Below are positions 6,501 to 56,832 of a stretch of DNA of 64,000 nucleotides, in pieces (position 1 is the stretch's first letter; each line of letters starts with the position of its first letter). This stretch comes from Candidatus Sulfomarinibacteraceae bacterium (GTDB lineage: Bacteria; Acidobacteriota; Thermoanaerobaculia; Thermoanaerobaculales; Sulfomarinibacteraceae). Made by a program: the position numbers and the translations under genes. The notes beneath the pieces are model-generated. The model was not told the origin of the DNA. It made no database searches and saw nothing but the letters and a program-made list of their open reading frames with translations. The stretch is taken from the NCBI GenBank assembly GCA_963796455.1, contig CAWCLO010000004.1:704001-768000 (forward strand), read 5' to 3'.

Positions 6501-7049
6501 TCATAGTTCTGCAAGGGCGGCGACGATTTCAGCCGCGATTTTTTCTGCGCCTTGCGACAGGGACTGTGCGACCGCATCAGCATTGCTGGCAGCGGCCGTT
6601 TCGGTGGCGTTGAACGACTGCTCCAACAGCGGTGCCTCGAAGCGCTTCTTGCTCGGATCACGGATCACGACGTCCACAGCCATCCTCGTTTCGGTAACTC
6701 CGCCCCGATCCACCTGCTCGAAAGCCGTGACTTTTCCGGAGAGCTCATACGTTGGTCGTCCGGCCACATGCGGGCCGAACTCGGTCTGGAATTTCTGTTG
6801 CACCAGTTCACCGACACTCGAGACCCAATGATCGGTGGCGTAATACTCGACCCGGGTCGGTGAGGCCGCGATCAGGATCCCACTTCGGCTCAGCGCCTCG
6901 GTGGTCTGAAATCTCTGAACATCGAGATTGACTGCTGGCTGCGAATTCCCGGAAGACTCCGCCGACAGGGTGTAGTAGTTGAGCTTGGGCGACGAAGCAC
7001 AGGCGGCGAGCACCAGAAATACACACAGTTGAGAGAAGCGCTTCATCAC
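6501..7049 (-). CDS. PqiC-like ABC-transport auxiliary lipoprotein
   Basis: Lipobox LAAC, 'YYTL', 'YYATDHW' pattern; last gene of the MCE operon. Confidence 0.8.
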   Translation of the reverse strand: MMKRFSQLCVFLVLAACASSPKLNYYTLSAESSGNSQPAVNLDVQRFQTTEALSRSGILIAASPTRVEYYATDHWVSSVGELVQQKFQTEFGPHVAGRPTYELSGKVTAFEQVDRGGVTETRMAVDVVIRDPSKKRFEAPLLEQSFNATETAAASNADAVAQSLSQGAEKIAAEIVAALAEL

Positions 7050-47722: not shown

Positions 47723-48874
47723 CTACCGGCCGCGCTTGTTGGCGAACATCCGTCGATCGGCCTCTTCGAGAACCGAGGTGGGGTCCCCACCCGGGAAGAG
47801 TTCGGCGACCCCGCTCGCGATGGAGAATGGTGGCGAATCATCTCCGTGGCGCCGCAGCGCCTCCCGGATGGCGGCGATTCGAGTCTTCGCGCTGGTCTGG
47901 TCCATGCTTGGAGCTACCACCAGGAATTCATCGCCACCCCAGCGGATGATGTGGTCTTCGGGGCGGAATTGATCGGTGAGCAGGCCGCCGAGCCGCTGCA
48001 GGGCGGCGTCACCGACCCGATGACCAAAGAGGTCGTTGATCTGTTTGAAATCGTTGATGTCGATAAAAATGATCGCTCCTCCGGTTTCCAGAACCGCGTC
48101 CATGGCCTTGCGCAGGCTGCGGCGATTGGCGAGATTTGTAAGAGGGTCGGTATCGACCAGGCGGCTCAGACGTTGTTGCGATTCGAGGAGCTCTCGGTTG
48201 GCGTAGTGCAGGAGTTCTTCGCGCCGGTCGGTGAGCACCGCGATACAGGCCAGACCGAGCACCAGTTCCACCCAGGCATCGATGAACGATGAGTAATTGA
48301 TATAGGCGAAGCCCTTTTGGTTGCCCCATAAGCCCGGCAGCAGCAAAGCCGCCGAGAACAGAAAGAGCGCTCCTTCCAACAACAGCGCCCAGCCGAGCCA
48401 TCGTGATACCAGCGAGCGCGGATTGCGCAGCACCGTCAATCCACCGGCCCCGAATACCAGACCGATCAACAGGCTTTCGGCGAGTTGCGCGTTCCACAGG
48501 TGGGGGACGGCAAAACCGAGCAGAAGGCTCCACAGGGCGATAAAAACCGTCAAAAACGTCGGCGAGACACGCGGTTCCGTCCCCGGCCGGAGGTGGTGGC
48601 GGGCGCCCGAAACGATCAGAATCGCAAAGACCGCCTTGCCGGCGAGGTAGAAAACCAATGCCAGGCGATGACCCGGCAACGGGATGTCGGCGTAGGCGTG
48701 GACGAATACAGCGGCGAGAGCCAAGGCGTTGGCCAGCCAGGCGAAGGTCCACAGTCGGACCTCGCGCAATCGGACAATCTGGCCGAGCAGCAGGAAGTAG
48801 CTGAAGAGACAAACCACCACCGAGAATTGAACGGCAATCGAGAGACGGTTGAGGATGATGGTGATGTCTTCCAT
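47723..48874 (-). CDS. Membrane-bound diguanylate cyclase (about 7 TM plus GGDEF)
   Basis: TDPLTNLANRR, DINDFKQIND.FGH, RPED I-site, intact GGDEF; start reset to ATG 48874. Confidence 0.92.
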   Translation of the reverse strand: MEDITIILNRLSIAVQFSVVVCLFSYFLLLGQIVRLREVRLWTFAWLANALALAAVFVHAYADIPLPGHRLALVFYLAGKAVFAILIVSGARHHLRPGTEPRVSPTFLTVFIALWSLLLGFAVPHLWNAQLAESLLIGLVFGAGGLTVLRNPRSLVSRWLGWALLLEGALFLFSAALLLPGLWGNQKGFAYINYSSFIDAWVELVLGLACIAVLTDRREELLHYANRELLESQQRLSRLVDTDPLTNLANRRSLRKAMDAVLETGGAIIFIDINDFKQINDLFGHRVGDAALQRLGGLLTDQFRPEDHIIRWGGDEFLVVAPSMDQTSAKTRIAAIREALRRHGDDSPPFSIASGVAELFPGGDPTSVLEEADRRMFANKRGR

Positions 48875-48903
48875 GAGCCTGTGTTCACTATACCTGCGCT
48901 CGC

Positions 48904-49031
48904 GCAGAGGAGCAGAGGAGCAGAGGAGCAGAGGAGCAGAGGAGCAGAGGAGCAGAGGAGCAGAGGAGCAGAGGAGCAGAGGAGCAGAGGAGCAGAGGAG
49001 CAGAGGAGCAGAGGAGCAGAGGAGCAGAGGA
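48904..49031. repeat. Perfect 8-bp tandem repeat (GCAGAGGA) x16
   Basis: Counted directly. Confidence 0.97.
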
Positions 49032-49601: not shown

Positions 49602-50942
49602 ATGGATTCTCGTCGATCGTATCTCGGGATAGTGTTTTGTTTTTTGATCATCGGGTCGATCTCTGAAGCCGAGACTCTGGTGGTGTCATCCGCATCGGAC
49701 CGCGGTCCGGGTTCCTTGAGGAATGCCATCATTCTTGCAGACTCTAACGGAGAAGCGGATGTCATCGAGTTTCAAGACGATATGACGATCGTTCTCGATT
49801 CGCCGTTCCCAACCATCACATCTGAAATCAGGATCCTCGGGAGGGGTTGGGAGCGAACGGTGATCGATGGAGGTGCATCTCGGATTGGCGGGCGGGGCGT
49901 TGCACTGTTCGATATTTCCACCGGTGGTGCCCTCGAACTCGACGGCGTCATGTTGCAAAACGCGGACAGCTCGTGGGAGGACGGCTCAACGGTCTGGAAC
50001 CGCGGATCGTTCGAGTTCCGCAACAGCCGGGCCGAGCGTAACGATGCCCGCTACGGGGGCATCTTTGCGACAACCGATGGTGGCGATAGCCGCTTTTTCC
50101 AATCGACGATTTCGGAAAACAACTGCGAAGCAGGACCTGATTCCTTCGAGGGCGTGATCCTTCTGAAATCAGGTGCGGTTTTGATCGAAGCATGCCTGAT
50201 TGCAGACAATTTGTGTTCCGAACCGGGGATTGGGGTCGCCGCCGTCGTCAACCTTTCAGGAGTTCTCGATATCAAAGAGTCGCTACTGGAGGGGAACAGG
50301 GGTGATCTGGGAGGCGCCGTCAGCACGGGAGGCACGACTCGGATTGTGAATTCAACTCTGAGCGGCAACCGGGCCGAATCAGGAAGCGCGATTTATCATA
50401 TGGCGGGTGAGCTCGCGATAGGATTCTCCACCATTGCAGGAAATCGAACCACGACCGGGGGTGCGATCCATTCTTCAGGATCTGTGAGGCCGATCATTCA
50501 GATGAACATCATCGCCGGGAACATCGGGCCCAACTGTGGCGGGGGAGGGGTGAAGTCCCGCTGGTTCAATATCGAGGACAGTAACGATTGCAGGCTTGAT
50601 GGAAATGGTGATCAAATCCACACCAATCCCATGATCGGCCCATTGGCAGCCAATGGGGGCTTGACCGACACATATTCGTTGCTGCAGGGGAGTCCTGCAA
50701 TTGACGGCGGCGATCCAAACGAATGTAGATGGGACTGGGACGGGCATCCCGCGTCTCCCGACGATCCTGTGGACTGGGATCAGCGCGGTGCCTTCCGACC
50801 GACCGACGGCGACGCAAATGGGACAGCTATCTGTGACGTGGGTGCGTTCGAGAATCCGGCCGCCGCTATGCAGCCGTTCTTTGTTGACGGTTTCGAGTCC
50901 GGCAGCGCATTCGCCTGGTCCGCGGTGGTCAACGCCAACTGA
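49602..50942 (+). CDS. Secreted beta-helix / choice-of-anchor-Q-like protein
   Basis: Signal peptide, GPGSLRNAI, repeated 'NSTLSGN..GGA', 'GPLAANGGLT..SPAIDGG..DQRG..CDVGAFE', terminal FVDGFESG. Confidence 0.82.
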   Translation: MDSRRSYLGIVFCFLIIGSISEAETLVVSSASDRGPGSLRNAIILADSNGEADVIEFQDDMTIVLDSPFPTITSEIRILGRGWERTVIDGGASRIGGRGVALFDISTGGALELDGVMLQNADSSWEDGSTVWNRGSFEFRNSRAERNDARYGGIFATTDGGDSRFFQSTISENNCEAGPDSFEGVILLKSGAVLIEACLIADNLCSEPGIGVAAVVNLSGVLDIKESLLEGNRGDLGGAVSTGGTTRIVNSTLSGNRAESGSAIYHMAGELAIGFSTIAGNRTTTGGAIHSSGSVRPIIQMNIIAGNIGPNCGGGGVKSRWFNIEDSNDCRLDGNGDQIHTNPMIGPLAANGGLTDTYSLLQGSPAIDGGDPNECRWDWDGHPASPDDPVDWDQRGAFRPTDGDANGTAICDVGAFENPAAAMQPFFVDGFESGSAFAWSAVVNAN

Positions 50943-51027
50943 TCGATCAATTAACGGGTTCGAAAATTACCGATGCTGTCTCGGTGCTGCCGCGCCCGGT
51001 TCGACCACGATGCTATTCTCGGCGACA

Positions 51028-51771
51028 ATGGCAAACCGCCAATCCCTCTCGGCCTCGCAGTGTGCGGATCTCATCCGCAACTCGAGTCGCGTCGCCGCCC
51101 TGACCGGAGCAGGCATCTCGACCACAGCTGGGATTCCGGATTTTCGCGGTCCTGAAGGGCTCTATGTCACTCGTCGCTATGACCCGGAGGCGGTCTTCGA
51201 TATCTGGTCGTTTCATCGCGACCCGGAACCGTTTTTTGATTTCACCCGCGATTTTCTTTCCACGATTCACTCCATCGAACCCACCCTGACGCACCGATTC
51301 CTGGCCGACCTCGAGCAGGACCGCAAGCTGACCGCTGTTGTCACCCAGAACATCGACTCTCTTCATCAAAAAGCCGGGTCGAGAAATGTCGTCTCCGTGC
51401 ACGGCGACTATTGGAAAAGCCACTGTCTGGTCTGCGCGGCAATCTACGACCTGGGGTATATGGAACAAGCAATCACCCAGGAGAAGGTGCCGCTTTGCAC
51501 TTGCGGCGGCGTCATCAAACCGGATGTCGTTTTTTTCGGTGAAACGGTCAAGAGCTTTGAGCGTGCCTCGAACATCGTCAAAGTCTGCGATCTGCTTTTT
51601 GTCCTCGGCTCGTCGCTCGCGGTCTACCCGGCCTCGATGCTGCCGGAGGCTGCCGGTGGCAAGGTTGTGGTCGTCAACAAGGGCGAGGTGAGCCTGGGTC
51701 CCGGGCCGACGCGATACTTCGTCGACGCGGATCTCGATTCCTTCTTTTCGTCGGTTGCCGACAAGATGTAA
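51028..51771 (+). CDS. cobB: NAD-dependent deacylase (sirtuin, Sir2/CobB family)
   Basis: TGAGIS..GIPDFRG, TQNIDSLH, HG, two zinc Cys pairs, KPDVVFFGE, GSSL.VYPA. Confidence 0.92.
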   Translation: MANRQSLSASQCADLIRNSSRVAALTGAGISTTAGIPDFRGPEGLYVTRRYDPEAVFDIWSFHRDPEPFFDFTRDFLSTIHSIEPTLTHRFLADLEQDRKLTAVVTQNIDSLHQKAGSRNVVSVHGDYWKSHCLVCAAIYDLGYMEQAITQEKVPLCTCGGVIKPDVVFFGETVKSFERASNIVKVCDLLFVLGSSLAVYPASMLPEAAGGKVVVVNKGEVSLGPGPTRYFVDADLDSFFSSVADKM

Positions 51772-51802
51772 CCCGGCAAATACATGATCCGGCCATCGGC
51801 TC

Positions 51803-51867
51803 GAGTTGGACAAGGTGGTCAGTAACTTGTCACCTTATGCAGCAACTCAACATCTGGAGTTGTCTGC
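51803..51867. promoter_or_regulatory. Candidate enhancer (activator-binding) palindromes
   Basis: GACAAG-N11-CTTGTC (51809-51831) and GCAGCAACTC..GAGTTGTCTGC (51839-51867), about 80-140 bp upstream of a sigma54-type promoter. Confidence 0.45.
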
Positions 51868-51946
51868 TATTGGGTGTAGATATCGTTTTCATGGACTAAA
51901 CCCCGTGTTGGCCGAGTTTATGCCGGAGAAGGAAATGCTGGTGTTA

Positions 51947-51962
51947 TGGCACGATCCGTGCG
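51947..51962 (+). promoter_or_regulatory. Sigma54 (-24/-12) promoter
   Basis: TGGCACGATCCGTGCG vs consensus TGGCACGRNNNTTGCW, exact GG-N10-GC spacing, in a lower-GC intergenic region. Confidence 0.72.
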
Positions 51963-51972
51963 TATATCCTTC

Positions 51973-52149
51973 TCGAGGAATGCGCTCGTTGGGGGTTTAT
52001 AGCGCCGACTCCACTGCTCGAGTCCCTGACGAACGAGACCCAGAGTTCGGTTTGATTGTGGCTGATAGGTAGGATCAAGTCGCGGGGACAAACCGAATTC
52101 CTCCTCCTGCGGACCCGGTCGGATCCCTCCATCCGGCCGGGCCTTTTTT
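51973..52149 (+). ncRNA. Candidate sigma54-dependent small RNA (about 175 nt, three stem-loops)
   Basis: Lies between the promoter and a terminator; stems pair well on the + strand with many G:U pairs; no credible ORF downstream of the promoter; 5' end estimated. Confidence 0.6.
52114..52149 (+). terminator. Intrinsic terminator of the candidate sRNA
   Basis: CCCGGTCGGAT-CCCTCC-ATCCGGCCGGG followed by CC and T6. Confidence 0.82.
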
Positions 52150-52221
52150 CGACCGGGACGCTTGATCTGGAATCTGCCGTGGACCACGAATACAGTTGAG
52201 GGACACCGGCGAGACCGGATT

Positions 52222-54075
52222 TCAGTCTTTTTGTGCGGCAAGAATGCCCAGGCGTTTCATTTTCATGGTCAAACCGTTGCGGGTGACCCCGAGGAGGCGG
52301 GCGGACTCGGAGTGATTGCCCCTCGAGACCTCGAGAGCCCGTTCGATGATTCGCTTCTCGACCGCGTCCATGTGGTGTTTGAGGTCGAGGTTTGCGGTGT
52401 CGCTTTCGAATTCATCGAGACTGACGTCGGAAAGGACCGAAGGTGAGATCATCGAGCTCTCGATGGCGCGGCCGGCTGGGCAAGCCGTTACGAGGCGGTT
52501 CAACTCGCGCTGCAGCTGCCGCACGTTTCCGGGCCAGCCGGCGGATTGCAGGGCCTCGAGCGCACCGATCGACAAACCGCGAACGCTGTTTCCGTTCTCG
52601 GCAACTGCGTGATCGAGAAAGTGCCGAGCGAGAACCGGAATGTCGTCGCGACGTCTGCGGAGAGGCGGCACGTGGACTTCGCAGCCCGCGATCCGATAAA
52701 AGAGGTCTTTGCGGAATTGGCCGTCGTGGACGCGCTGCTCGAGATCCGTGTTGGTTGCGGCCACAACCCGGACGTTGACCGCGATCGGGGAAGCCGCCCC
52801 GAGCGGCTGCACCTCGCCCTCCTGGAGGGCGCGGAGCAGCTTCGCCTGAAGGGCGGGGTCCATGTCGCCGATCTCGTCGAGAAAAAGAATGCCTCCATGG
52901 GCGAGGCGAAGCTTGCCCCTCCGGCGCGTCACCCCGGTGGCCACTCCGGCCTCGATCCCAAAGAGCTCAGCCTCGAGAAGGTCCGCCGGGATGGCGGTAC
53001 AGTTGACGGTCTGGAGGGGGCCGGCCGCACGATCCGAAGATGCGTGGAGGATCCGAACGATGTGTTCTTTGCCGACGCCGGTTTCGCCTGTGACCAGAAC
53101 CGGCATACTGCCTTTGAGCAGCGTCGCGAGCTGGCGGTAGAGCGAGCGCATCACCGGCGTTCGACCAACAACATGCCATTCCGGGAATTTGAGATCCTGA
53201 TCAAACGGCGGTTTTTCCGGCTGATCGATCTCGTGAACCGGAATGGTGGCCGACTGGAACATGCGAAGGGCCACTTCGAGGAAAGGCTGCCCTGTGGGCC
53301 CGATATCGTTGGCGACTACCACCAGGGCGGCCTCCCAACTCTCGGGCCCCCAGGCCACAGCGATTGATGTGGCGGGTTGGGTGGCGATCTCGTGAGACGA
53401 CATGCCGCTCGAATGATCCGGCGAAGAGCGGAGCGCCTCGAAAGACGCGGTTTCGTGCCACTGGTCGAGCAACGAGAGGTCACCGGTAGCGGCCTGGACC
53501 AGCGCACTTTTCTTGGGGCTTCGAGAAAGCAGCGCCACCGCTTCGGCCTCCAGGGCCTCGGCAAGGTGTTCCATCGCACCCTCCACATCCGGTGACCAGC
53601 GGCTGATGAGTCGGGAGGCGCACTCGTTCAAAACATCAGGCCACTTGATGGAGCTTCGCGGCGTGATGCCGATCTCCGTCGTGCAGTCCTCATCGGTCGG
53701 GCTGACGGCCGCGGGTTTGTCTTGCTCCGAGAGGGTGATGGCAAGTTCGTGTTCTTCAACCGACAGCGACTCGAATGTCAGGACGACCGGACCGAATTGA
53801 ACCCAGTCGTTTTCGGCGAGATCCGCCTTCCGTACCCTGACGCCGTTGACATAGGTGCCGTTGGTGCTTCCGAGGTCTTCAAGACGAACACCATCGGAAT
53901 TCACCTTCAATACCGCGTGTCGCCGGGAGACCTGCCGGGCAGGAATGTGGATCGTGTTTTTGGGGTCGGCGCCGACTGGATTTTCGCCGAGTTGCAGCAC
54001 GAAGAGCCTTGCTTCGCCCTGGAGGTCGCCATGGAGACGGAAAATGGTACCGACACCACCGGTGCTCGGAATCAT
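52222..54075 (-). CDS. FHA-domain sigma54-dependent transcriptional activator (bEBP)
   Basis: FHA VSRRH..DLGSTNGT; GETGVGKE, FLDEIG, RVVAATN, FRKDLFYR, WPGNVRQL, Fis-type HTH; L1 loop GVATGV; AGGAGG RBS before ATG 54075 (TTG 54111 is an alternative start). Confidence 0.92.
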   Translation of the reverse strand: MIPSTGGVGTIFRLHGDLQGEARLFVLQLGENPVGADPKNTIHIPARQVSRRHAVLKVNSDGVRLEDLGSTNGTYVNGVRVRKADLAENDWVQFGPVVLTFESLSVEEHELAITLSEQDKPAAVSPTDEDCTTEIGITPRSSIKWPDVLNECASRLISRWSPDVEGAMEHLAEALEAEAVALLSRSPKKSALVQAATGDLSLLDQWHETASFEALRSSPDHSSGMSSHEIATQPATSIAVAWGPESWEAALVVVANDIGPTGQPFLEVALRMFQSATIPVHEIDQPEKPPFDQDLKFPEWHVVGRTPVMRSLYRQLATLLKGSMPVLVTGETGVGKEHIVRILHASSDRAAGPLQTVNCTAIPADLLEAELFGIEAGVATGVTRRRGKLRLAHGGILFLDEIGDMDPALQAKLLRALQEGEVQPLGAASPIAVNVRVVAATNTDLEQRVHDGQFRKDLFYRIAGCEVHVPPLRRRRDDIPVLARHFLDHAVAENGNSVRGLSIGALEALQSAGWPGNVRQLQRELNRLVTACPAGRAIESSMISPSVLSDVSLDEFESDTANLDLKHHMDAVEKRIIERALEVSRGNHSESARLLGVTRNGLTMKMKRLGILAAQKD

Positions 54076-54107: not shown

Positions 54108-54413
54108 TCAACCCTTCGTGCGATCGAGAACCTCCTGGAGGAGGATCCCCGGTAGCAGATCTGGATCCAGGTGTTTGCTGAGATCAAGGGCGGCGGCCGC
54201 GGCTGACTCCGTTTTACCCGCGGCTTCCAGCGAAACAAACCGGACCGCCAAAGCGAGTTCCAGTATCTCGAGGTCAACGAAGTCCCATTTCGAACCCTGA
54301 TTCAGCCTCGAGATCAGTCGGTCGACTCGGTTCCAGTGGTGGCGTCCGTCGGTTCCATGCCCTCCCCGGAATCCGCCGCATGCATCGACGGATTCGCGAT
54401 GAGAGTACGCCAT
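54108..54413 (-). CDS. Small hypothetical protein
   Basis: GGAG RBS plus ATG, fills the gap directly upstream of the activator; C-terminal half looks helical; no recognisable family. Confidence 0.4.
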   Translation of the reverse strand: MAYSHRESVDACGGFRGGHGTDGRHHWNRVDRLISRLNQGSKWDFVDLEILELALAVRFVSLEAAGKTESAAAAALDLSKHLDPDLLPGILLQEVLDRTKG

Positions 54414-54480
54414 ATGCCGACTCCACCGGAAATTGTCCCGGATACCGGTTATATTCTGGGGTCGTGGAATTGGAGGGATC

Positions 54481-56832
54481 ATGAGACGAGCTGCGCCCTT
54501 GCTGGTGGGTGTGTTGTTGGTGTCTCTCGTTGCGACCGGTGCCGAGACGCACCGAACGAGCTCGCTGGCAAAGGCCGAAGGCGATGCCGGCATCTCGGGG
54601 AGGGTGACCGACACCTCGGACGGATCGGGCATCGAAGGCATTCAGGTTCACATCTACGAACTCGGCGCTCCCGGAATCGAAGTGGCGATTCTGTGGACCG
54701 ATGTCGACGGGTATTTTGCCAGCGAAGATCCTTTGAGTCCGGGTGTTCACTTTGCACGGACCGTCGACACCTTAGGATTTGTCGACGAAATATTTGACGG
54801 GTTGCCGTGCCCCTTTTCGTGCAACGTTGAAGATGGAACGCAGATTGTCGTCGCTGAAGGAGAGGTCTCGGTCGCCGACTTCGGACTCGATCCGGCCGCA
54901 TCGATTTCAGGAACGGTCGAAAGTTCGGTGGCGGAGCCCTCCGCCATCGCAGACGCAGAGATCATGTTCTTCGATCTCGGGGGTGCCTACCAGACATCGG
55001 CGTGGAGCGACGGAGGAGGCGCCTGGGACACTGGTGCAATATTCCCTGCCGGCACATTTTTCGCCCGGGTCTCACGGGCCGAAGGCCATCTCGGTGAGCT
55101 TTACGACGACTTCAACTGTCCATTCCACCCTGCATCGTGTGACCCGACGACCGGCACGCCGATCGAAGTGGCGTCCGGGGATATCTTAACTGGGCACGAC
55201 TTTGTCCTCGACCCTGGCGGAACGATTTCGGGTGAGGTCACCGACACCTTTCTCGAGTCCGGTGTCTCGGGAGCCGCCCTGGCTCTTTTTAACCTCGACG
55301 GGATCCAGGTGTCGACCGCTTTCTCGGAGGCCGGCGGGATCTACTCCAGTGATGACGGTTTGGTTCCTGGTACATATTTCGTGCTTCTGAATGATTCAGG
55401 CTTCTCGCCGCTGATCGAGGAGCTCTACGACGACCTCTGGTGCCCGGATGGATGTGATCCAACCGCTGGAACGCCTGTGCCGGTCACGGCGGCGGAAACC
55501 GTGGTCGACATCGATTTCAACCTCGAGCGTTTTGGCGCCGTTTCCGGCAGACTCGTCGCGCAGGACACCGGAGAGGGCATCCCGAACTCCTACGTGGAAA
55601 TCTATGACCTTGGCGGAGGATGGGTGGCGACCGCCACAGAGGAGTCAGGGTCGGGAATGTGGATCACCGAAGAGAGCATACTTCCTGGCCAGTATTACGC
55701 GAGGTCGGTGAATCCGGGCGGCTACATCGATCAGGTCTACGACGGCATCGACTGTTTCGCCTGTGACGTCACGACCGGGACTCCCTTCGGGGTCGATTCC
55801 GGGGCTGTAACGGGAGACATCGATTTTGTCCTCGAACGCGGCAGCTCGATCTCGGGTCTGGTGACCGACGCCAACGGCTTTGGCGCGATCCCGAATGTGG
55901 CAATCGGTATTTTCGACACCAGCGGCGTTTTGGTCACTGCAACCGGGAGCGATGGCTCCGGCCGATACCAGACGGAAGCAGCGCTTGCGGCCGGTACCTA
56001 CTTGATTCAGACATACAACGAACTCGGCTACATCGAAAAGGTCTGGAATGACGTGGTGTGCAACGGTTGTGACATCACCCAGGTCGGCACGCCGTTGGAA
56101 GTGCCGGCGGCCACCGATGTCACCGATATCGATTTTGTCCTTTTCAAGGGCGCATCGATCGCTGGGAGGGTAACGGTTGCCGGAACCGAATTCGGTGTCG
56201 ACAGTGTCCTCGTCGGCATTTTTGATGACAATGGCCAACCGGTGACCTCTGCCGTGGCGGACGGCATCGGGAACTACGTCACCGAAGCGGTGCTCGCCCC
56301 GGGGTTCTATCGAGCGATGACCGTCGACAGCCGCGACTTTCTACCCGAGCTCTACCAGGAGATTCCGTGCGCCTTCGGCTGCGAAATCATGGATGGCGAT
56401 GCCATCGATCTCGGCCCGGCACAGGCGCTCGTGGGTATCGATTTCACCCTCGAACTCGGAGGTTGGATTTCTGGGACGGTGGTCGATGCCGTGAACTCGA
56501 ACCCGATCGAAGGCATCGAGATCGGCATCTACGACAGCACCGGTGTGCTGGTGACTGGGGCGACAAGCGATTTCGATGGTAATTGGGAGTGCGACCCGGT
56601 GCTTCCGTCGGGCGATTATTATGTCGCTACCGTCAGCAGCTTGGTCTGGCTCGATCAACTCCATGACGGAGTCGCGTGCGAAGATGGATGCGATGTCACC
56701 AGTGGTTTGGCGGTGGCGGTGGCCGCTGAGACGGGTTCGGCGGGGATCGCGTTTGTTATGGAAATGGATCCCGTCGTCTTCACCGACGGTTTCGAGTCGG
56801 GAGATCTGAACGGCTGGTCCGGCGTCCAGTAG
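54481..56832 (+). CDS. Secreted acidic protein with seven carboxypeptidase-regulatory-like beta-sandwich repeats
   Basis: GGAGG RBS, signal peptide, seven roughly 105-aa repeats beginning (I/V)(S/A)GxV, each with a Cys pair; terminal FTDGFESGD. Confidence 0.82.
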   Translation: MRRAAPLLVGVLLVSLVATGAETHRTSSLAKAEGDAGISGRVTDTSDGSGIEGIQVHIYELGAPGIEVAILWTDVDGYFASEDPLSPGVHFARTVDTLGFVDEIFDGLPCPFSCNVEDGTQIVVAEGEVSVADFGLDPAASISGTVESSVAEPSAIADAEIMFFDLGGAYQTSAWSDGGGAWDTGAIFPAGTFFARVSRAEGHLGELYDDFNCPFHPASCDPTTGTPIEVASGDILTGHDFVLDPGGTISGEVTDTFLESGVSGAALALFNLDGIQVSTAFSEAGGIYSSDDGLVPGTYFVLLNDSGFSPLIEELYDDLWCPDGCDPTAGTPVPVTAAETVVDIDFNLERFGAVSGRLVAQDTGEGIPNSYVEIYDLGGGWVATATEESGSGMWITEESILPGQYYARSVNPGGYIDQVYDGIDCFACDVTTGTPFGVDSGAVTGDIDFVLERGSSISGLVTDANGFGAIPNVAIGIFDTSGVLVTATGSDGSGRYQTEAALAAGTYLIQTYNELGYIEKVWNDVVCNGCDITQVGTPLEVPAATDVTDIDFVLFKGASIAGRVTVAGTEFGVDSVLVGIFDDNGQPVTSAVADGIGNYVTEAVLAPGFYRAMTVDSRDFLPELYQEIPCAFGCEIMDGDAIDLGPAQALVGIDFTLELGGWISGTVVDAVNSNPIEGIEIGIYDSTGVLVTGATSDFDGNWECDPVLPSGDYYVATVSSLVWLDQLHDGVACEDGCDVTSGLAVAVAAETGSAGIAFVMEMDPVVFTDGFESGDLNGWSGVQ

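Follow-up and report, generated by a model that had tools for sequence, protein, structure and literature searches.

The window analyzed here is a stretch of 64,000 nucleotides from the genome of a Candidatus Sulfomarinibacteraceae bacterium, in which a gap of 450 bp separates a cobB-type Sir2 deacylase gene (51010..51771, plus strand, start approximate; Pfam SIR2, E 9e-50), present as a neighbor only, from a convergent sigma54 activator gene. The latter (52222..54075, minus strand) encodes a 617-aa protein composed of an FHA domain, an AAA+ sigma54 activator domain and a Fis-type HTH (Pfam FHA, Sigma54_activat and HTH_8), with its ATG located behind CGCAGGAGGG. It is preceded by the 3' remnant of a Ser/Thr kinase gene of about 70 codons (54108..54314, minus strand), which matches the final part of a 928-aa Pkinase protein with 48% identity over 71 aa (E 2e-17). 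The gap itself holds a predicted small RNA (sRNA) of about 175 nt (51973..52149, plus strand), which is preceded by a sigma54 -24/-12 promoter, TGGCACGATCCGTGC (51947..51961, plus strand), and ends in an intrinsic terminator with the loop CCCUCC and a U6 tract (52114..52149, plus strand). The unit and the activator gene lie tail-to-tail, with 72 nt between the unit and the activator stop codon.

All motifs named in a preliminary description of the gap were found in the sequence, at or near the places it gave. Stem-loop SL1 (51985..52037, plus strand) is formed by CTCGTT at 51985 and AACGAG at 52032-52037 (position 52037, first given for this arm, is its end and not its start), with the loop CCGACTCCAC at 52005. 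The outer arms of SL2 (52043..52100, plus strand) occupy 52043-52054 and 52089-52100 and are followed by the linker CTCCTCCT at 52101, while the terminator consists of a stem at 52114-52141 with the loop CCCTCC at 52125 and T6 at 52144-52149. The segment 51973-52149 folds at -73.6 kcal/mol, with z = -2.2 for the plus strand, a value reached by 4 of 200 shuffles, and z = -0.1 for the minus strand. The strand asymmetry, which had been taken as a sign of selection on RNA structure, is thus real but modest. Single signals of this kind are weak or common. Loose -24/-12 matches occur 132 times in a pattern scan of the window's genome, seven of them followed by a hairpin and a T-run, and the 600 bp around the unit contain one terminator, with 0.8 expected by chance. 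The third promoter-terminator candidate, at C10:626100, proved to be located within a 392-aa frame and was discarded. It is because of its conservation that the unit stands above chance.

A BLASTN search, suggested as a check for conservation and run here with the 450-bp gap against 60 relatives, returned no homologue and only one chance match of 27 nt; orthologues were reached via the activator instead. Activator orthologues at 61-72% identity are present in 10 of 24 same-genus genomes, and nine of the ten carry a convergent unit of promoter, 142-152-nt body and terminator, located 0-70 nt beyond the activator stop. In several of them, the U-tract adjoins the activator stop codon. In the tenth genome (G011), the unit is absent from the 145 nt available before the contig end. 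The promoter, GG-AGGATC, the inner-seed CTC and the 3' arm of the terminator are invariant in 10/10 copies, and the CCCTCC terminator loop is invariant in the nine orthologues and present in the window. A covariance model derived from the nine orthologues, with the window left out, matches 51947-52149 with 28.6 bits (E 4.7e-6), compared with training-set scores of 112-189 bits. In keeping with the description of the RNA as unannotated, no Rfam family matches the window (best E 0.91) or five orthologous loci, and no reading frame is shared among the ten copies. By these comparisons, the unit is conserved, unlisted in Rfam, non-coding and structured, with a sigma54 promoter and terminator of its own, and it likely makes an RNA of 150-175 bases.

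Over 119 genomes of the order, the covariance model matched only its nine training genomes; absence outside the genus is weak evidence, since this strict-filter search missed the window's own copy. A looser promoter-plus-motif pattern yielded the nine carriers and no further copy among 77 genomes of the family, its other hits (8/9 inspected) being mRNA leaders or coding DNA. A metagenome pattern scan gave 44 stretches, three of which score 165-170 bits and all adjoin the activator, two of them being near-identical to G012; the remaining stretches comprise one weak and 40 chance matches. The weak match (L216, 27 bits) has neither promoter nor activator and was dropped, as was a 19.9-bit match (L196) to a palindrome upstream of cobB that has no promoter. 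A metagenome search with the C-terminal part of the activator gave no match. The range of the unit is 10 of 25 genomes of one genus, window included, and its divergence to the point of BLASTN failure indicates a fast turnover of this sRNA within that genus.

The presence of the unit follows that of the activator. We found cobB in 17 of 24 same-genus genomes, nine of which are the unit carriers. Seven of the eight other cobB genomes have downstream DNA, and all seven lack both the activator and the RNA unit; there, cobB is directly followed by a molybdopterin oxidoreductase-like gene in six cases and by the end of the kinase gene in one. As 7/7 testable activator-less cobB loci are without the unit, it belongs with the activator and not with cobB. 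The proposed coupling to the adjacent FHA activator is thereby upheld, with synteny in nine relatives and three metagenome contigs.

The sigma54 promoter reported at 51947-51961 is supported by the alignment, in which TGGCACG-N5-TGC is kept in 10/10 copies, and rpoN is present in the genome. In the orthologue alignment, no column of the spacer from -11 to -1 is invariant and conserved positions reappear at about +3, from which we infer an RNA 5' end at 51973-51975. Upstream of the promoter, tandem 17-bp palindromes are located at -133 to -135 and -113 to -115 in 9/9 orthologues, and the enhancer motif reaches a total of 185 bits in a palindrome search, compared to 110-119 bits in five shuffles. 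The window copy has only one good site, an enhancer (UAS) candidate with the 17-bp palindrome TGCTCA-N5-TGAGCA (51816..51832; 12.5 bits; -131 from the first base of the promoter), while the alignment places a degenerate remnant of the second at 51838..51854, with a score below 0. Of the palindromes described at 51809-51867, the first accordingly contains an enhancer site, whereas the second (GCAGCAACTC...GAGTTGTCTGC, 51839-51869) overlaps the decayed second site and is missing in the orthologues. The combination of tandem sites and promoter occurs once per genome, at the sRNA locus, in 5/5 genomes tried; as the pattern was derived from these sites, its presence there is circular, but its uniqueness is not. 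Furthermore, the same tandem sites are found at -133/-113 before a sigma54 promoter at L074, the locus of a 51%-identical activator paralogue outside the training set, where the promoter behind them drives a secreted protein. This ties the enhancer motif to the activator subfamily. Between enhancer and promoter, an AA...GAGAGACTT-like element (51897..51920), weakly conserved in position in the upstream alignment, is possibly an IHF site; IHF assists sigma54 activation.

Two observations concern related activators and promoters. The distant FHA activators of L074, L015, L018 and L022 are followed by same-direction sigma54 promoters for secreted proteins with strong GGAGG sites and no sRNA. At L206:158-6860 (G000:C10:664157-670860), a sigma54 promoter with a matching enhancer precedes a frameshifted cluster of secreted LRR genes, which converges on a Ser/Thr kinase gene and has a purB-like gene for a neighbor. 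Elsewhere in the genus, one genome has a paralogue of the FHA activator beside this same purB-like gene.

The comparison also revises the structure of the RNA. SL1, its CUCC loop and the outer stem of SL2, all part of the unit as first described, are shown by folding and alignment to be absent from orthologues and peculiar to the window's genome. Three exposed CUCC motifs had been counted; CTCC is present four times (52009, 52101, 52104 and 52127), but just two C-rich sites are conserved, and one of these is predicted to be partly masked. An alternative pairing of the terminator 5' arm exists in the window, where CGACCGGG at 52150-52157 complements 52114-52121, but not in orthologues. The conserved C-rich sites are the terminator loop and an inner anti-Shine-Dalgarno seed, CCUCCUCCU (52100..52108, plus strand), whose CUC is invariant, which reads CCUCC in 9/10 copies, and which is located in a hairpin loop in orthologues; in G009, the inner seed has CUCG instead of CUCC. 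The 16S 3' tail of the genome ends in GAUCACCUCCUUUCU, and by base complementarity the conserved seeds match the Shine-Dalgarno sequences of the genome. Mimicry of the 16S tail by CGGUAGGAUCA, which matches 9/11 letters of the 16S end, was noted as a mere curiosity; this element lies about 25 nt from the seed.

The linker had been described as single-stranded, but is not fully so in the predicted fold: there, a 5' strand (51975..51984, plus strand) pairs with 52094-52103 and thereby covers the beginning of the seed, with an unpaired probability of 0.24 for the linker. The orthologue counterpart of this helix is ACCGGGAG / CUCCUGGU. More specifically, the inner seed of the orthologues can pair in two ways that exclude each other: in a hairpin, where it is displayed (92.8% of cells paired, two pairs changed on both sides), or in a helix with the 5' end, where it is masked (88.9% paired, one two-sided change in one genome, broken in two sister genomes). 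In an alignment of nine related sequences in which most pairs never vary, this covariation is suggestive for both pairings. In the terminator, 2/12 pairs are changed on both sides across orthologues. In folding ensembles, pairing between seed and 5' end has a probability of at least 0.5 in 7/11 copies, window included, while the seed is open (0.77-1.0) in 11/11 fragments that start after GGWAGGAUC; the CCUCC of the terminator loop has a predicted unpaired probability of 1.0 in 11/11 copies. The plus strand folds better than the minus strand in 9/11 copies.

The most conserved element of the RNA is GGWAGGAUC (52068..52076, plus strand), which escaped the preliminary description. It is located in the apical loop of SL2, with 8/9 positions invariant in 10/10 copies, and the unpaired probability of its GGWA ranges from 0.51 to 1.0 in the folding ensembles of 11 copies. 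Its sequence is kept although the partners it pairs with vary from copy to copy, a pattern that suggests recognition in trans. A model based on anti-Shine-Dalgarno pairing leaves this element without explanation.

As described in the available portion of PMC3162421, canonical phosphothreonine-binding FHA domains have GR, SxxH and NG motifs, of which GR is crucial for phosphothreonine binding. The FHA domain of the activator keeps SxxH and NG but departs from this canonical type, as the Arg of the GR motif is replaced in 17/17 loci aligned, the position reading GA in the window and nine orthologous loci, and GA or GS in seven paralogous loci. Among the nine orthologous loci with upstream DNA, a Ser/Thr kinase gene ends just before the activator RBS in five, including the 928-aa protein of L069 (Pkinase, E 5e-54); in two, the 3' part of the kinase runs off the locus, and in two only a kinase remnant is present. 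In the window, the last 71 codons are left. The step from phosphothreonine to the FHA domain in the circuit originally proposed is therefore doubtful, given that GR reads GA and the neighboring kinase is a remnant in the window's genome. Synteny favors a link from kinase to activator, though not the plain phosphothreonine reading and not from the window locus. The ancestral input was likely a Ser/Thr kinase whose gene lay immediately ahead of the activator gene and which was read by a non-canonical FHA domain; judging from the remnant, the window's genome has lost this kinase at the locus.

Two known systems, Pxr and the cuckoo RNAs, had been named as analogies. The layout does resemble Pxr, and the loops resemble those of cuckoo RNAs and NfeR1, but membership of either family does not hold. 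In the available text of PMC5568312, PMC5684412 and PMC10217877, pxr of Myxococcus xanthus has a sigma54 promoter driven by the adjacent activator PxrR (Nla19), and a long form of the RNA is processed to a shorter active form. In common with Pxr, the RNA described here is a stand-alone, multi-stem sRNA with a sigma54 promoter beside a sigma54 activator gene; a comparable short form in the window's family is a folding prediction. As far as those texts go, pxr measures 108 nt, follows pxrR in the same orientation and takes its input from a histidine kinase/receiver pair, whereas here the genes converge and an FHA activator stands behind a Ser/Thr kinase. Searches with the Pxr model (RF01812) gave no match in 50500-53500 (E <= 10) or in five orthologous loci (E <= 1). 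With cuckoo RNAs (alpha-r14) and NfeR1, the RNA shares C-rich anti-Shine-Dalgarno motifs in hairpin loops on variable stems, as those RNAs are portrayed in the accessible sections of PMC4615179 and PMC10746234. In the same sections, cuckoo RNAs carry CCUCCUCCC in 2-4 adjacent hairpins and are found in Alphaproteobacteria only (PMC4615179), while NfeR1 silences ntrB via anti-Shine-Dalgarno loops and has a promoter without sigma54 signature (PMC10746234). Loops with CCUCCUCCC are absent here, where the loops are CCCUCC and UACCUCC and the window linker is CCUCCUCCU. The Rfam model ar14 scores 16.4 bits against the window (E 5.1), below its cut-off of 58.8, although cuckoo-like exposure of an anti-Shine-Dalgarno loop is predicted for the terminator loop in 11/11 copies. 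Qrr with LuxO and GlmY with QseF are sigma54-dependent sRNAs with a dedicated enhancer-binding protein. The same design is seen in CrcZ with CbrB, described in the available part of PMC8657755 as a sigma54- and CbrB-driven decoy RNA. CrcZ, Qrr and GlmY differ from the present RNA in that there is no Rfam match here, the motifs differ and those systems use receiver-domain activators. The RNA also departs from CsrB/RsmZ-type decoys, which have many GGA loops and CsrA as their partner, with one conserved GGA-containing motif and no CsrA found. A literature search of main texts, few of them from subscription journals, returned no Acidobacteria sRNA of a sigma54 activator and no described Acidobacteriota riboregulator. 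The sRNA family is previously unlisted and narrow in range; its enhancer is well defined and its kinase/FHA input is unusual.

A second sigma54 sRNA, of about 78 nt, was observed at G000:C4:968128-968232 on the minus strand (L033:4632-4733), between the gene of a 1279-aa activator, with which it lies tail-to-tail, and a murB-like gene. It displays a single-stranded pyrimidine tract, ACCUCCUCCUUCCUCCU, has no Rfam match and was found by BLASTN in 22/24 same-genus, 33/36 same-family and 12/24 other-family genomes, some of these matches being weak. It has AUACCUCCU in common with most orthologues of the window's RNA and CCUCCUGCGG with the window copy, but differs in its order-wide range, its length of 78 nt and its single-stranded pyrimidine tract, and the reciprocal model scores of the two sRNAs are not significant (12.4 bits, E 0.09; 13.6 bits, E 0.58). 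Its top predicted target is an 89-aa gene at G000:C1:519616 (plus strand), IHF/HU-like by eye, which could represent feedback. Weak hits of its model (27-30 bits) at L203, L204 and L205, in 3/10 genomes of a distant family of the phylum and with two hits in L203, are possibly another sigma54 anti-Shine-Dalgarno RNA. A tandem repeat translating as SSAPLLLC / EQRSRGAE is shared by the window (about 48870-49000) and L033 (about 6950-7040), and occupies at least two intergenic places of the window's genome.

The RNA has the hallmarks of a trans-acting, Hfq-dependent sRNA, namely its own promoter, a U-tail terminator, a conserved and predicted-unpaired seed, no conserved ORF and an hfq gene in the genome. 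CsrA was not found in 6/6 genomes (86-96% completeness; control positive in 3/14), on which ground a CsrA sponge was rejected. Crude calls gave 2935 leaders with a detectable Shine-Dalgarno sequence, 296 with AGGAGG and 156 with GGAGGG, and because these sites are so common, target specificity beyond the core would be needed. The activator's own RBS has 9-10 bases complementary to the window linker, at rank 160 of 4749; across nine genomes, the cognate pairing was no better than swapped pairings (permutation fraction 0.66 for the seed and 0.07 for the loop). The secreted LRR-protein gene C10:670706 has a sigma54 promoter, a 14.6-bit enhancer and 11-12 bp of complementarity with the linker, but was set aside as it has no full-length orthologue in 5/5 relatives. 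Also discarded was an SPFH leader with a 14-base site in five carriers, which is identical in three non-carriers and absent in the window's genome. None of these three candidates passed the examination for conservation or cognate preference as a specific mRNA target. Seed-complementary starts are neither enriched nor depleted in carriers (22 in five carriers versus 26 in five non-carriers). Signal-peptide genes make up 38% of the top 50 predicted targets, compared to a background of 23%, and this was exceeded by one of 30 flank-shuffled seeds; with crude gene calls and a crude signal-peptide rule, the enrichment is suggestive only.

Further observations were made on leaders. The RBS of a divergent gene for a secreted repeat protein (GGAGGGATC, 54470-54481, plus strand) can pair perfectly over 9 bases with the region of the terminator loop, at rank 6 of 4749; this gene was not seen beside the activator in relatives. 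Among the SPFH gene leaders (L281-L299, 15 loci), nearly all have a conserved TGATATC-rich palindrome immediately ahead of the gene, which is probably an operator.

Comparison across relatives thus shows the promoter, the fixed-distance tandem enhancer, the terminator, the invariant CCCUCC loop and GGWAGGAUC motif, and strict co-occurrence with the activator. In our preferred reading, which we consider rather probable, the unit encodes a sigma54-driven sRNA under the control of the adjacent activator, whose C-rich loop and linker pair over the RBS of other mRNAs and lower their translation. The activator would bind the enhancer, and transcription with sigma54 would yield one sRNA starting at about 51973-51975. 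This sRNA would be trans-acting, probably assisted by Hfq, and its targets would be several mRNAs that carry AGGAGG/GGAGGG-type sites, among them possibly those of secreted proteins and the activator's own mRNA. In the full-length RNA, the 5' end would fold back on the inner seed, which would open upon refolding or processing, while the terminator loop would always be open.

A decoy function, with GGWAGGAUC or the C-rich loops binding a protein or another RNA (e.g., the second sigma54 sRNA) rather than mRNAs, appears unlikely to us, even though it would account for an invariant motif with differing partners and has a precedent in CrcZ, a sigma54 decoy RNA in the accessible text of PMC8657755. 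In its GGAAGGA form, the motif complements the UCCUUCC found in the second sRNA, but 7/10 copies read GGUAGGA, which breaks this pairing. Decoy RNAs usually repeat their binding site, and GGWAGGAUC is single-copy; the failure to find CsrA in 6/6 genomes also speaks against this function.

The tail-to-tail arrangement in 10/10 cases, the U-tract at the activator stop codon of several orthologues and the lack of any minus-strand terminator-like site in 51700-52300 would suit an RNA that acts mainly in cis, limiting activator levels by antisense overlap or collision with the convergent activator transcript. A conserved loop sequence is not required for cis-antisense action, yet it is the stems and spacers that change here, whereas the loop and the motif are invariant, and the RNA ends at or before the activator stop codon, 72 nt away in the window; we regard a mainly cis-acting role as quite improbable.

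Equally improbable, in our estimate, is that the family functions in relatives while the window copy decays along with its kinase. The 71-aa kinase remnant, the degenerate second enhancer site, the low score (28.6 bits, where training-set copies reach 112-189), the failure of the filtered genome search to recover this copy and the want of a BLASTN relative all fit such decay. Against it, the promoter, GGUAGGAUC, the C-rich seed, the terminator loop and the U-tract are all kept, the body is remodeled into new long stems (plus-strand z of -2.2 to -3.0), the activator frame is intact, and a canonical RNA is retained by two relatives in which the kinase is likewise reduced to a remnant. Finally, a cobB terminator with chance motifs, or a short peptide gene, is largely refuted and most improbable: loose promoter matches are frequent, as are single terminators, and a 30-codon frame starts at 51980, but promoter and enhancer are conserved in all copies, no frame is common to the ten, and cobB, whose read-through had been named as the terminator's possible sole purpose, is without such a terminator where the activator is missing.

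A bolder extension of the preferred reading, in which translation is lowered through pairing over the RBS, is one that we hold to be doubtful as a whole. It envisages a mobile cassette of a Ser/Thr kinase, a non-canonical FHA activator and one dedicated sRNA, self-locked by pairing of its 5' end over the anti-Shine-Dalgarno seed, in which cleavage or binding at GGWAGGAUC would free a 60-nt, two-hairpin module that shuts the RBS of secreted-protein mRNAs and of the activator. If true, it would link eukaryote-type kinase signaling to a switchable riboregulator in Acidobacteriota.

Hardly any riboregulators have been described in the Acidobacteriota, an abundant phylum. With enhancer, promoter, RNA and activator defined, the locus represents a complete and portable unit that could be rebuilt in a laboratory sigma54 host, and it would extend the design of an activator paired with an sRNA to a Ser/Thr kinase/FHA input.
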